NCBI GenBank assembly: GCA_012295275.1
Contig: CM022672.1
Location: 20,646,001-20,710,000, forward strand
Length of the DNA: 64,000 nt
Source of the DNA: Chrysomallon squamiferum
Lineage: Eukaryota > Animalia > Mollusca
Direction: 5' to 3'
Both the position numbers and the translations under genes were made by a program. This document shows positions 27,101 to 33,100 of the stretch, piece by piece; position 1 is the first letter of the stretch; every line of letters begins with the position of its first letter. The notes beneath the pieces were generated by a model. The model saw only the letters and a program-made list of their open reading frames with translations, did not search any database and was not told the DNA's origin.

Positions 27101-30100
27101 ATCTACCTGCAGTCCTTTGGAACCCAGTGTGATTTTTGATGATGGATCATACAGACAAAGACGTCTGATAAACACAGAGTTGTTTGCTTTGTCGGATGCT
27201 TCTAGAATAAAAGAGTACATGCCAGGTTCAGACGGTTGATAAGAAGACTCTGTGCTACTGAGATTTTCTTGCAAAACTTCTGTTATTTGAAGAGGTCGCA
27301 GTGGATACTGTTCATGCAGTCTGCCACTAATGTCAGGCACCAGTTTGAAAACTTCCCAAGCATAGCGGAACATTCCTGACAGAGTATCTGTCCATCCATT
27401 CCAGTTCAAAACAATTGGATTCTATAAGAAAATCATTCTGATTTTCCTTAAATGTTGAAAAATGTGCCAAATATACATAAAAGACTGAAAGATATTTAAA
27501 TCTTTATTTCTTTACTACACAAGAACCATTTTACTGTAGATAATAATTTACTAAACTGAGTACTTGATGGCTTGTTTATGTGGGTCTTTTTAAAACAAAA
27601 GTGAACAAAAGATAGTTTGATCATTGAAAATGTTGAGATTAAAATTATTATGCACATACATACAACTAGATACCCACATGTACAAAAGTGTAGATCAAAT
27701 AGATATGGATTCATTTTACGTGGAAGAAAACTGAAATTTTTATAAACTTAGTAAAAATGAAAAATGTAACTTACATTTGTGACATGGATATCATTGTCTA
27801 CACTGAATATATCTTTGCTGCAGCTTGAATTTGTTAACTTGCAATGTTTAGGTTTATCTCTATCAAATCTGTACTCAACAGCCTTTTCAGCCCAGTGTCC
27901 TTCAAAATCATCTGTAGCAAACCATTTGTTTGGATTATCTGAATTTACTACTTCACGATAACCACCACTTTTTGTTCTGAAAGTCACTGTCAGTCTGCAA
28001 ACAGTAATGTAATCCAGTCAAATGAAATGTAAATCATGGACATTTTTAAAATAAAAAGTAATTTTAAGAAAGTCCGTGCCTCAAATGAAGAAATATGTTA
28101 TAGTTTTATACTTTAGAATAGTAGGAAAAAAAACAACAATAAATAAAAAAAAACGATGGCGATGATTATGAATATGACAATGGTGTATGATGACGGCAGT
28201 GGTGAACACAACAATGAGAATATAAAGTGAATTAGTAAAGAAGATAATATCGTTATTTATCTTTCTCACCTGTCTCCATTTTCTAGTGAAAGAGGCAGAA
28301 ATTATATATTTTTCCTTTCTTCTTAGCACACAGAAATGCAAAAACATTTATTTTACAGTGTAACAGTTTTATTTTTTATTATTTAAATTTTCACCTGTCA
28401 CCATTTTCCAGCTGCCTGTCAAAGTTTGGTAGGCTGATAGAACAGTTCACTACATCTGGGGCTGGTGACCTGGGACCAATATTCAGAGATGTAAAAGTCT
28501 GGTTACACACAATTGTTTCATTCTTGCTGATATATTTTTTGGTTGGATCTTAAATAATAATTACATGGAAATTATGAATTTATCTGAAACAAATGTTGAG
28601 ATAATTCAAAAAAAAAAAAAAAAAAAAAACTACAGACAAATTTTTTGCCACTACTTCCACAATTCCTCTGTATTGTTCCTATTTCTTTACTAAAAAAAAA
28701 ACCCTTTGTTATCCTGAAGTCTTTTACAATAATAATAATAGTAATAATAATAATAATAAAATTATTATTATTATTATTATTATTAGTAGTAGTAGTAGTA
28801 GTAGTAGTAGTAGTAGTAGTAGTAGCATTAGTATTAGTTTTATTACAATCATCATCATTATTATTACTATTATTATTATTATTATTATTCAGTTAACATT
28901 CTATCAAAGGGTTGTACCTAGAAAAGATTTCTTAGTTAGCAGGATATTCACTTCAGCATGTGTTATGCCAAACTCTGCCTTTCTTATCCAAGTGGGTTTA
29001 TCAGGTGGATCTTCTCCAAGGTACTGACTGACTGCAGTGATGTTGATCCAGTTAAACATAAACTGATTTGTCCACAAGAAATCTGTTTCTTTCTTATTGG
29101 TGGAATCCACAGTCAAGGCATATTTCTCCATTGGATTAGCAATTCCTCTCATCCAGAATGACATTCGTGCTTGGATGGCATTGATGGAAGGTGTCAGTTT
29201 AGAATCCACTATAATAATAATAATAATAATAATAATAATAATAATAATAATAACAACAGTAGCAATAGTAATATAGTAATAATAACAATAATATTAATGA
29301 TAATCAGTATGATTATGATGATGACGATAATAATATTAATATGAGAAAGAGAGAGTATTATTTTAATCTCTCAAAAATAAATAAAGTACCTAAAAATAAA
29401 TGAATAAATAAATGAGATACTATACTTACTTTTGAGAGAGAGAGAGAGAGAGAGAGAGAGAGAGAGAGAGAGAGAGAGAGAGAGAGAGAGAGAGAGAGAG
29501 AGAGAGAGAGAGAGAGAGAGAGAGAGAGAGAGAGAGAGAGAAATAAATAAATTACATAACAAATAAATAAATTAATTAATTAATTAATAAAAATAAATCA
29601 ATAAATGAGAGAATGTACTTGTAACTGAGAGAGAAAAAGAGATTTTAATCTCTCAGGAAATAAATAAATAAATGAGATTGTACTTACTTCTGAGAGAGAG
29701 AGTGAGAGAGAGATAATGATTTTAATCTCTTAGAAAATAAATAAACTACAAAATAAATAAATGAATAGACAGACAGATAGATTGGTAGGTAGATATAAAG
29801 AGAGATAGAAAAGTAAATAACTGATATCTGTACTTACTTGTAAGGCATTTTGTACCACTGAATCCGTCCTCACAGATACAGGTAGTCGTTGTACCGCCTG
29901 GGTCTCGCTGACACGCACCAGGATAACAGGCAGTGAGATGTGAACATTTCACTGAAATAAATATATCTTAGTTAACAAATTAATAAATAAATTATATACT
30001 AATAATTATGAAAATTATAAATTAAATAAAATATTATTTTTATGATGTTTGGTGGGAGAGACAGTTATCTTTTATTATCAATTTAATTATTTGATTTTAT

Positions 30101-33100
30101 AGCATTTTGAATTGAGAATCATCAAAAAGTTTATCTTAGAAATATTTCTTCTATCTTCTTTCTTTATTATTATTATTAATAATTTTAATTTAAAAAAAAA
30201 AAAATATATATATTTTTGAAGCTTCATGTTGTTTCTGTTACACTGTTTACTGCTTTGAGGAGTAATTCATTAACACTCTTACATCCATCACATCTATCTC
30301 CATCTCTGCCAGCAGGACAGCGACAATGATCTGGTCTATCACAGGTACCTCCATTTTTACAGTTTGGACGACAGACAGCTGAAAAATAAACAACCCAGGT
30401 ATCTTAGTAACCCAGCTGTTTATCTGGAACGCTTGACAGAAGAGGTGGTCCGGATTTTTGGATACAGAGTATTTTGGGTTTCAAGTTTTAATAAAGTTTA
30501 AACATATCATACGTCAATTTCACTCTTTTCAACATATTTCATTTCATTTTGCAGTTTAAATTTCTATCCAGCTACATGCTTATCAAATAAAAAGCAACGT
30601 TCCAAAACATTTGCCCACTGGAGAGTTGCTCACCAAACATTTAAACAAATGGACAGTTGCTACAGCCGGAGACAGTTTTTGCAGGATATTCTTTGAACTA
30701 TATTTGTTCTTTTTTAACTTTTAAGGTGATGAAGTGTCAGGGGAAAATGTCCGATGAGCAATGTGCAAATGCCCTAAATCGTAAATTCTGTAACTATAAA
30801 ACTGGTTCCATGTAAACGTCCTCCATCGGTCCATCCTAGTTACGCCACTAATTTAGGCTGTCTTAATATGTCAGTTATATACATATATATACATACATAC
30901 ATACATACATACATACATATATATATATATATATATATATATATATATATATATACATATATATATATATATATATATAATATAATACTGTCGTAAAAAG
31001 ATAGATATGACAAAATAATTAACAGTTATGAAAAAAATATATGAAAAAATAATTATATATACACATACAAAATTATTTATAATATCCATAACGCAGTAAC
31101 ATTTATGAATACTAGTTATATTTATAATAAGTTACGCAAATAAATGCATATACAATTCTTTTGTTATTTTTCTTACTTAACTCAGGAAAATATAATATAA
31201 ACAAATAATATTCACAAATATATATATATTGTTATTCTCTTTTGTTTTGAACAGAAATACTAACTAATCAGAATCCCGTATTCAGCAGTTCTTGTTAACG
31301 TCAAACTATGTCAGCAAGAAAACAGACTTACGAACGGTGCAGCTAGTTGAATCCTGCTTCGTTCCCTTCCAGCCCATGCAACAGTAAGGATCATATCTGT
31401 ATCGTTCCCTCCAGACATATTTATAGGAACAGCAGCTGAAACAAAACATATAATTTAGCTAAAAAGGTAATGTTTATTAAATCGAAAAGTTAGCCTTAAG
31501 CATTTTTTGAAAGAAATCAAATAAAATAAAATAAAATAAAATACAACAACAACAACAACAACAATAATAATTTGTAATTTAGGGATATAAGCTTGTGTAT
31601 AGATTTTATTTGCGCGCTCTCTCTCTGTTTAATATTTATCTTTTTATAAAATTATTTTATATTCTTAATTATTATATTTTCAGTAAAACACTCATCGTTA
31701 AAAAACAAATTTAATGGCGAACTTACATTTAAAGTTTTTAAAAGTCTACAAATAAATAAATAAATAGCAAAAAGCAACTTACATAAACCAGAATCTGAAA
31801 GTACATATGCGTTCTCGCTCATAATAACACACTCTTCGATAACACACGTGTCTGTAAGTAAATAAATAAATACATCTGTGTAATTTTGTGTGTGTTAAAA
31901 ATATGTCCATCAAATTTTAGTCACACACACACACATACACACACGCACACACAAACACACACAAAATCCATCAAAATTCCAGGGGTAACAATCCTTGCTT
32001 TCTTATAAATTCACGGAATGACTAGCCTTCTATATCCCCGACTTTCAAATAAAAAAAATATAAAACAAAAAACAAAACTGAATACTAATGTCATCAGATT
32101 AAATTTAATTACATTTATAAATATATTTCTGCTGAACTGTTATGGTGCATCAATGTAACAAATATATAAGCAAACGTAACATTTAATTTTGAAAGCAGTT
32201 TCCATAATTTGTTAACAGAGGATTTTACCTTCTTCTTTCTTTTTTTTTTGTTGTTTATGTTGTTGTTGTCTTTCTATTTCTGTTTTAACTATTATTATAA
32301 AATTATTTAATTTTATGGTAAATAATTCTTTATTTAACCATTTCTTTCTTTCTTTCTTATTATTGTTATTTTTTGCACTTTTATTATAATTATCGTGAAG
32401 AATTTGATTTTGTATCACGACATATCCGACATATCCGTAGGACTCAGTTTAAAATAGGAACATAATACATAGGAACATAATACAAATATTTATAACAGAT
32501 CTTAAATAAAGGGCTTCGTCGCTGTTTGAGGGAATGAAGTCACGTCAACTAAATGCAGCCTTCTGATTGGTCGACATCGTTTGTTTACCTTATTTTTGAA
32601 CTACATTAATGCTTTTGTTTATATTCTGTTCTCAGCAATTTTTCAGATTTTGTTTGATGTTTGCTTTGGCGTCAGCTAAATAAAAATAAAAATGTTTACA
32701 CTTCTCTTTCATACATTTCTACTGTCAACTGATTTTATTATTATTATTATTATTATTATTTATTTATTTTTTTAAAATTTTCAGAATGTGGTGAAACAGG
32801 TGGGATTATTTCCCCTTCCCTTACTGTGACCTTGACTTGTATTGCCCTAGAAAGATCCATTTAAAAAAAATCTTTCTCCTAATGACCAATGATTAATATA
32901 TCACTGTGTTCTAGTGGTGTCTTTAAACTTTTCATTTATATTATTATTAATATGGTATTATGAATTAATTTTTTTTCCATTAAATTCAAGTGATTGTTCA
33001 AATTTGAAGCCATTATGCTTTCAAAGAAAAAGAGGAAAGTTCATATGTCACTGAAGCCTGAGATTGCTGTACAATATATTTATGAACATTTTAAGGAGTT

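Follow-up and report, generated by a model that had tools for sequence, protein, structure and literature searches.

Background

In MEGF10, PEAR1 and Draper, and in the insect Nimrod proteins, the N-terminal end is the binding end. Receptor pseudokinases include PTK7/CCK4, RYK and ROR, and fast-evolving tandem receptor arrays with homogenised signalling parts are represented by Alr of Hydractinia and by the FREPs of molluscs. Adaptive immunity is, to our knowledge, absent from molluscs, whose recognition receptors have been described in a few cases only. This work deals with a receptor gene of the mollusc Chrysomallon squamiferum, present as two tandem copies (A and B) in a stretch of 64,000 nucleotides (GenBank assembly GCA_012295275.1, contig CM022672.1, positions 20,646,001 to 20,710,000 of the forward strand; “the window” in what follows), and especially with the N-terminal end of the receptor, or tip, encoded by exons 2-5. 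An earlier note on this DNA, made from its letters, had reported an excess of amino-acid divergence in the tip and proposed diversifying selection on a ligand-binding surface, as in immune and allorecognition receptors.

The receptor was similar to MEGF10/PEAR1/Draper and Nimrod proteins in its signal peptide, in the cysteine-rich stretch ending in CCMGW (CCxGY in those proteins) and in the EGF-like module placed directly after it, but differed from them in the absence of a Pfam EMI match, in an EGF-like module without the CxxxC step, and in having two such modules instead of many; those proteins, in turn, lack the string of beta-sandwich domains and the kinase-like domain of the mollusc receptor. 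As in FGFR-type receptor tyrosine kinases, the protein crosses the membrane once and matches the PK_Tyr_Ser-Thr family, with FGFR2 and FGFR3 as the closest kinases; unlike them, it lacks the catalytic Asp of HRD and DFG and has a different ectodomain. The nearly all-beta model of a relative (P0005, from Gigantopelta) resembled ectodomains built as FN3/Ig strings (gp130, leptin receptor, LAR and contactin), but showed no sign of a cytokine-binding module. Alr and the FREPs share with the receptor a tandem array, a membrane-distal module that is the most diverged and mosaic identity, and possibly also the many non-synonymous tip variants that public reads show for the receptor; they differ in that no dN/dS significantly above 1 was found here and in that the receptor studied here is known from its sequence.

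Amino-acid replacements between the two copies

Comparison of the window with itself revealed a tandem duplication (13039-31901 vs. 47443-63550, 77-98% identity), each unit of which carried one minus-strand copy of the receptor gene. The gene copies and their tips were as follows:

18113..37875, minus strand: copy A, a receptor gene with 22 coding exons (modelled on the A/B alignment and on proteins of Gigantopelta; exons 2-14 confirmed by joints in RNA contigs)
50877..63505, minus strand: copy B of the receptor gene, exons 2-22 (A/B alignment; exon 1 would fall beyond the end of the window)
29838..31851, minus strand: tip of copy A, exons 2-5 (A/B alignment, AG/GT boundaries, RNA joints)
31783-31851, minus strand: exon 2 of copy A (spliced model)
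31332-31435, minus strand: exon 3 of copy A, cysteine-rich module ending in CCMGW (spliced model)
30283-30378, minus strand: exon 4 of copy A, EGF-like module (EGF Pfam match)
29838-29951, minus strand: exon 5 of copy A, EGF-like module (spliced model)
29951>30283 and 30378>31332, minus strand: RNA joints in the tip of copy A (RNA contigs)
61803..63505, minus strand: tip of copy B (A/B alignment, all boundaries AG/GT; B-type letters in runs X1, X2 and X5)
63437-63505, 62970-63073, 62314-62409 and 61803-61916, minus strand: exons 2, 3, 4 and 5 of copy B, respectively
31348-31434 (A) and 62986-63072 (B), minus strand: exon 3 peptides quoted in the earlier note
31354..31365, minus strand: tip codons 47-50, reading G-T-K-Q in A but R-T-R-W in B; this patch, in the loop that follows CCxGW, varies most

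Replacements between A and B were concentrated in the tip (27 of 127 codons vs. 68 of 1078; Fisher p = 2.8e-7), and this excess is not due to chance. The hand counts of the earlier note were reproduced exactly: 27 replacements in the 127 codons of exons 2-5, 8 in the 245 codons of exons 17-22, and 10 in exon 9 (which has 276 codons). The same was true for exon 3, where 9 replacements and 1 synonymous codon were recounted (Nd 11, Sd 1), for the conservation of the cysteines in exons 3-5 (17 of 17), and for the limits of the region (29838-31851), which coincide with the last base of exon 5 and the first base of exon 2 in copy A. The description of A and B as otherwise near-identical paralogs was too strong, as the introns differed and exon 8, on which that note was silent, was a second hot spot (15 replacements in 73 codons, omega 0.66-0.71).

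One of the three cysteines of exon 2 (the second of the tip, at position 31829 in A) was changed to Arg in B and to Leu in P0005. Either a tip disulfide seems to be dispensable or copy B seems to carry an unpaired cysteine. P0005 also lacked one Cys of the CC pair.

The ratio of non-synonymous to synonymous divergence (dN/dS, or omega) was estimated from the two sequences, A and B, by the Nei-Gojobori method for each region and by a pairwise codon likelihood model (kappa 2.07, F3x4). With the former, dN was 0.108 and dS 0.148 in the tip (omega 0.73), and 0.147 and 0.053 in exon 3 (omega 2.8), while omega was 0.30 in exon 9 and 0.22 in the kinase exons. With the latter, omega was 0.74 in the tip (p = 0.43 vs. 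1), 1.65 in exons 2-3 (p = 0.42), 3.5 in exon 3 (p = 0.17), 0.71 in exon 8 and 0.36 in exons 6-13. Values significantly below 1 were obtained for exons 6-22 (0.35, p = 3e-8) and for the kinase exons (0.24, p = 3e-4), the latter being shown to be under purifying selection. Omega was heterogeneous along the gene (exons 2-3 vs. exons 6-22, likelihood ratio test p = 0.010; tip vs. kinase, p = 0.031). The dN/dS above 1 that the earlier reading called for was thus not significant in any region, be it the tip, exons 2-3 or exon 3. Exons 2-3 had 16 non-synonymous and 3 synonymous changes (binomial p = 0.47 for 16:3).

When synonymous and flanking-intron sites were used together as silent yardstick, the non-synonymous/silent rate was 0.74 in the tip and 0.31 in the rest of the gene (ratio of ratios 2.4, p = 3e-4); on the intron yardstick, the tip did not differ significantly from 1 (p = 0.15). 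The dN of exon 3 was 0.89 of the local silent rate, and a single synonymous change was seen where 3.0 were expected from the flanking introns (P = 0.19), so the high ratio of this exon was due to a scarcity of synonymous changes and not to an excess of replacements. The tip changes at about the neutral rate; this is uncommon in a folded module rich in disulfides, yet it does not prove positive selection.

Silent divergence and probable gene conversion

Intron divergence was measured in reliably aligned columns. Introns of A and B differed by 3.5-16%, with many insertions and deletions (indels) over ~16 kb, and the 19 introns were heterogeneous (chi2 = 78.7, 18 degrees of freedom, p = 1.5e-9). 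The p-distance was 0.135 in the tip region (107/793), 0.121 in the middle of the gene (343/2835) and 0.073 in the 3' third (177/2438), or 0.056 in the 3' third once an intron with a minisatellite was excluded; the middle and the 3' part differed strongly (p = 3e-9). Silent divergence therefore formed a mosaic of blocks along the gene. The regions other than the tip that entered these comparisons were:

27775..27994 (A) and 59477-59696 (B), minus strand: exon 8, second hot spot of replacements
18113..22915 (A) and 50877-55010 (B), minus strand: 3' third, exons 15-22, low silent divergence

The minisatellite was located in intron 17 of both copies (29-base unit; 20615-21374 in A and ~52977-53770 in B) and comprised 26 copies with 84% matches in A.

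The mosaic affects how the replacement counts are to be read. The contrast between the tip and the kinase exons was inflated ~1.9-fold because the 3' part is younger or homogenised, but the contrast between the tip and exon 9 was not inflated, because tip and middle introns did not differ. The earlier note had named, as findings that would speak against its proposal, a dN/dS not above 1 together with an equally raised silent and intronic divergence; dN/dS was indeed not above 1 and the tip introns were 1.9-fold more divergent than those of the 3' third (p = 2e-7), but not more than those of the middle of the gene (p = 0.30). Neutral divergence explains the tip excess in part only.

The 3' part was likely homogenised by gene conversion, rather than being a younger partial duplication, to judge from the pattern of identity in the copies and in Gigantopelta. 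In the latter, the closest partner of a given member switched along the protein: P0003 and P0004 agreed at 0.99 in the kinase but at 0.68-0.83 in the ectodomain, P0004 and P0005 at 0.90 in exons 6-7, and P0003 and P0005 at 0.87-0.91 in exons 9 and 13. Segmental conversion between the members of a tandem array would produce such switching, to which chimeric gene models could also add.

Variation among relatives and in public reads

Of all regions, the tip was the least conserved in each of the 6 scorable pairs (A, B, P0003 and P0005): 0.75 vs. 0.79-0.96 elsewhere for A and B, and 0.51 vs. 0.59-0.91 for P0003 and P0005. It was also the lowest in many Haliotis pairs and in most, but not all, pairs of bivalve paralogs. 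Ten of the 14 positions of exons 2-3 replaced between A and B also differed between P0003 and P0005, and the exon 8 stretch was variable across all five Gigantopelta paralogs.

Logan contigs of public sequencing runs, which are unphased and whose variants may be alleles or further paralogs, were aligned to the window. A-type tip contigs with 0 differences were present together with B-type letters in runs X1, X2 and X5, which belong to three studies, so both tips are real and coexist. Logan contigs drop variants, and the missing A-type contigs at some exons (X1, X2) are not evidence of absence. Among the read differences listed with respect to A, 32 of 40 were the letters of B, and B-type contigs had therefore been aligned on A.

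Taken singly, 12 of the 13 variant rows listed for exons 2-3 were non-synonymous, vs. 3 of 11 for exons 4-5. Six of the listed rows fell in codons 48-50 (31355, 31356, 31358, 31359 twice, and 31361), and at 31359 (codon 49) the reads showed two further letters.

A spliced RNA contig of 2,688 bases (X8 and X9, on 21550-32400) was neither A nor B. Counted against A, its differences were 2 letters in exon 5, 12 in exon 4, 6 in exon 3 and 6 in exon 2 (16, 6, 12 and 7, respectively, for B with respect to A); it resembled A in exon 5, B in exons 9 and 13, and neither copy in exon 4. It stems from a third paralog or allele that is expressed, or else is a chimera.

Evolution of the tip

The explanation that we prefer, to which we give an even chance, combines a tip that evolves close to neutrality around a cysteine scaffold, with probably a few positively selected loop sites, and gene conversion, which probably keeps the signalling part alike. 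Amino-acid replacement in the tip module would proceed roughly at the neutral rate of its surroundings, at two to three times the relative rate seen in the remaining protein, while conversion would keep the 3' third alike and so amplify the contrast with the kinase about twofold. Constraint on the loop residues would be weak, and diversifying selection would probably act on a few of them (codons 47-50 and those nearby). The tip may be the ligand-recognition end of the receptor; its position and a weak likeness to the N-terminus of MEGF10/PEAR1/Draper suggest that it could bind a ligand and work as in immune and allorecognition receptors. As to the diversifying selection of the earlier note, the acceleration held up as specific to the domain, in excess of silent divergence and recurrent in relatives, but selection itself did not, with no omega significantly above 1; diversifying selection on the tip is plausible but undemonstrated.

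Several points weigh against this explanation. The lower 3' divergence could also stem from a duplication that is partial or more recent, or from stronger background selection. Heterogeneity of omega was weaker when the tip was compared with exons 6-13 (p = 0.087) or with exons 6-22 (p = 0.060), the use of two sequences gives these tests low power, and an omega near 1 is compatible with relaxed constraint as well as with a mixture of constraint and positive selection. Exonic dS was below intron divergence throughout, and neither is a perfect neutral yardstick. Some probable Haliotis orthologs did not have their fastest changes in the tip (P0013 and P0016, 0.93), and the read variants, counted in the listed rows only, may be alleles or further paralogs.

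A more selective version, in which pervasive diversifying selection, positive or balancing, acts on the tip as a ligand-binding surface, as it does in receptors of immunity and allorecognition, with the cysteine scaffold fixed and the exposed residues driven apart, is possible but rather doubtful. The omega values of exons 2-3 and exon 3 (1.65 and 3.5), the 16 non-synonymous vs. 3 synonymous changes, the variation at the same positions in Gigantopelta and the divergence of the tip among paralogs across the family all agree with it, as do the six variant rows in codons 48-50, the predominance of non-synonymous rows in exons 2-3 (12 of the 13 listed) and the weak resemblance to the EMI and EGF end of receptors such as MEGF10 and PEAR1 (score 0.86, to be taken as a lead). 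Against this, no test was significant (p = 0.42 and 0.17; binomial p = 0.47), omega was 0.74 for the whole tip, the dN of exon 3 reached only 0.89 of the flanking silent rate, and the scaffold cysteine lost in B and P0005 fits a loosened constraint equally well.

It is less likely still, and put forward as a speculation, that the genes belong to an undescribed family of mollusc receptor pseudokinases with a Draper/MEGF10-like tip, arranged in tandem arrays in which conversion would unify the signalling half and diversifying selection would keep the tip hypervariable and multi-allelic. If conversion and diversifying selection on the tip do act together, the family would be a candidate system by which molluscs recognise non-self or symbionts.

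Independently of that speculation, a kinase predicted to be dead, joined to a tip that changes faster than any other part of the protein, makes the receptor a candidate for the recognition of ligands that vary, be they microbes, symbionts, gametes or tissue of conspecifics. The analysis has delimited the exon model, the hot codons (tip codons 47-50, exon 8 loop) and the 3' part prone to conversion, and even if the tip is only weakly constrained, the locus would be a clear case of mosaic evolution in a tandem array, and a warning that pairwise dN/dS from a single small exon can mislead.

Frame-breaking indels and the status of the copies

Three indels interrupted the reading frame in the assembled sequence:

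22824..22825, minus strand: 1-base deletion in exon 15 of A (TT in the assembly, TTT in the reads), leading to a stop 30 codons past the membrane span
55396..55414, minus strand: 38-base deletion in exon 14 of B, with 19 of 57 bases left and the donor site lost (assembly only)
54192..54193, minus strand: 2-base insertion in exon 16 of B (assembly)

Reads of other samples failed to support two of the three (exon 15 of A and exon 16 of B). The extra base in exon 15 of A was present at a depth of 93.6/93.6 in X1 and 16.8/43.6 in X2, and B-like contigs (X1, X2 and X9) over the homologous place in A had 0 gaps at the site of the 2-base insertion of B. Assembly errors, or null alleles of individuals, seem to account for the frame breaks, because omega was 0.24 in the kinase exons and the splice sites were intact: boundaries were AG/GT throughout A and B, the sole exception being the donor of exon 14 of B, lost in the deletion.

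These indels, together with the cysteine lost from the tip of B and the decayed remnant found between the two copies (copy C, below), could also mean that one or both copies are decaying pseudogenes whose tips diverged by drift after loss of function. This is quite improbable: decay would raise omega everywhere and not just in the tip and exon 8 (0.24 in the kinase, 0.35 in exons 6-22), each exon is open in its own frame, all splice sites but one are intact in the two copies, X1 restores the frame of A, B-like contigs lack the 2-base insertion, and spliced RNA contigs of this gene type are present. It is hardly credible that a single locus was misassembled, with its two haplotypes placed in tandem as A and B: marine mollusc assemblies often contain false duplications and individuals differ considerably (the best-matching run contains only 0.68 of the sampled words of the window), but intron divergence of 6-18% with many indels extends over ~16 kb, the sequence between the copies is different and includes exon 1 of A and the remnant C, A-type and B-type tips occur together in X1, X2 and X5 (three studies), and Gigantopelta has five members on one chromosome-sized record.

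Protein architecture and family

From the N-terminus, the protein comprised a signal peptide, the cysteine-rich stretch ending in CCMGW (exons 2-3) and two EGF-like modules (exons 4-5). The tip was followed by ~700 residues that formed a string of beta-sandwich domains in the AlphaFold2 model of Gigantopelta P0005 (mean pLDDT 83), then by a single hydrophobic membrane span (exons 14-15) and a kinase-like domain. In that model, the tip appeared as a long two-stranded hairpin (pLDDT 60-77). Foldseek aligned the P0005 model with FN3/Ig strings (gp130, leptin receptor, LAR and contactin; E = 1e-14 to 1e-10), with TM-scores of 0.11-0.24, which are low because only the repeated domain type is common to the model and the matches; one FN3 domain was also detected by Pfam.

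The PK_Tyr_Ser-Thr profile matched exon 18 of the window (1e-07) and six relatives with a kinase domain (1e-50 to 5e-68), and the closest solved structures over the full kinase-like domain were the kinases of FGFR2 and FGFR3 (E = 1e-46). The catalytic motifs were located as follows:

19796-19912 (A) and 52278-52394 (B), minus strand: exon 19, kinase-like, with the catalytic motifs

HRD was changed to HRK and DFG to GFG in both A and B. The loop motif was detectable in 42 relatives, which included gastropods, bivalves and a chiton (13 further proteins had none); none of the 42 had Asp at the HRD position, and 41 had Lys or Arg there together with Gly at the DFG position. The intracellular domain is predicted from these motifs to be catalytically dead, that is, a receptor pseudokinase, throughout the molluscs.

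A search with exon 9 returned 55 proteins, all of them molluscan; the top five were from the vent snail Gigantopelta aegis (72-78% identity), all on one chromosome-sized record, which places the source of the window among gastropods near Gigantopelta. Chitons, snails and bivalves all have members of the receptor family, which form multi-copy arrays, each on a single record of chromosome size. When metagenome contigs were scanned with exon 9, there were 83 pattern matches and 0 confirmed relatives. Full-text literature searches found no paper on the receptor family, and the portions of PMC4883820 and PMC8662651 available contained no mention of it; the mollusc-wide family has apparently been unstudied so far.

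The EMI family (Pfam PF07546) had no match in exon 3 up to E = 1, nor in residues 1-172 of P0003 up to E = 10, HMMER filters removing most matches above ~0.1. The EMI-type layout was present in A and B, with a cysteine-rich module ending in CCxG[WY] immediately before an EGF module (CCMGW in exon 3, EGF in exon 4). In the nearest named Atlas cluster, 97% of the members carried EMI and 98% carried EGF_PEAR1L (score 0.86, a lead only), and bivalve relatives carried Pfam EGF_PEAR1L (PF23301). The NIM repeat, given as CxPxCxxxCxNGxCxxPxxCxCxxGY after a CCxGY motif in the available part of PMC4073527, was not found: exon 4 reads CxPxC-xNGGxC-xxPxxCxC, without the CxxxC step, and there are two EGF-like modules only. 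Pfam gave no match for exon 8, exon 11 or five open reading frames located between genes or in introns.

Gene models and other features of the window

The exon model was built from the A/B alignment and the Gigantopelta proteins, and then corrected with RNA contigs, which gave exact joints for exons 2-14 and brought to light a micro-exon; its 22 coding exons are numbered as in the earlier note. Features placed in this way, in addition to those listed above, were:

37808-37875, minus strand: exon 1 of copy A, signal peptide (short motif, then direct reading)
25106..25142 (A) and 56833-56869 (B), minus strand: exon 12, a micro-exon of 37 bases (RNA joints; AG/GT in both copies)
44407..46205, minus strand: copy C, a compacted and more diverged remnant between A and B (protein matches)

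For exon 1, tblastn with the Gigantopelta signal peptide returned chance hits only, and the exon was located by a short motif instead, leaving an intron 1 of ~6 kb in copy A; the stop codon of this copy ends at 18113. Exon 12 of A was bounded by the RNA joints 24497>25106 and 25142>25550 (runs X8 and X9). The pieces of copy C matched exons 13, 17, 19, 20 and 21 (53-83% amino-acid identity to A) and did not include the tip. Copy C was locally closer to Gigantopelta, with HKK in the catalytic loop.

The window as a whole was AT-rich and contained microsatellites and spliced genes. Within intron 1 of A, the stretch 34001-36000 was richer in G+C (0.385 vs. ~0.28) and carried open reading frames of 93-136 codons that Pfam did not match; the stretch may represent a mobile element. 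Downstream of copy A, a two-exon homeobox gene was found on the minus strand (592-912 and 1298-1528), its homeodomain being split across the exons (Pfam Homeodomain, 2e-13 and 6e-05).

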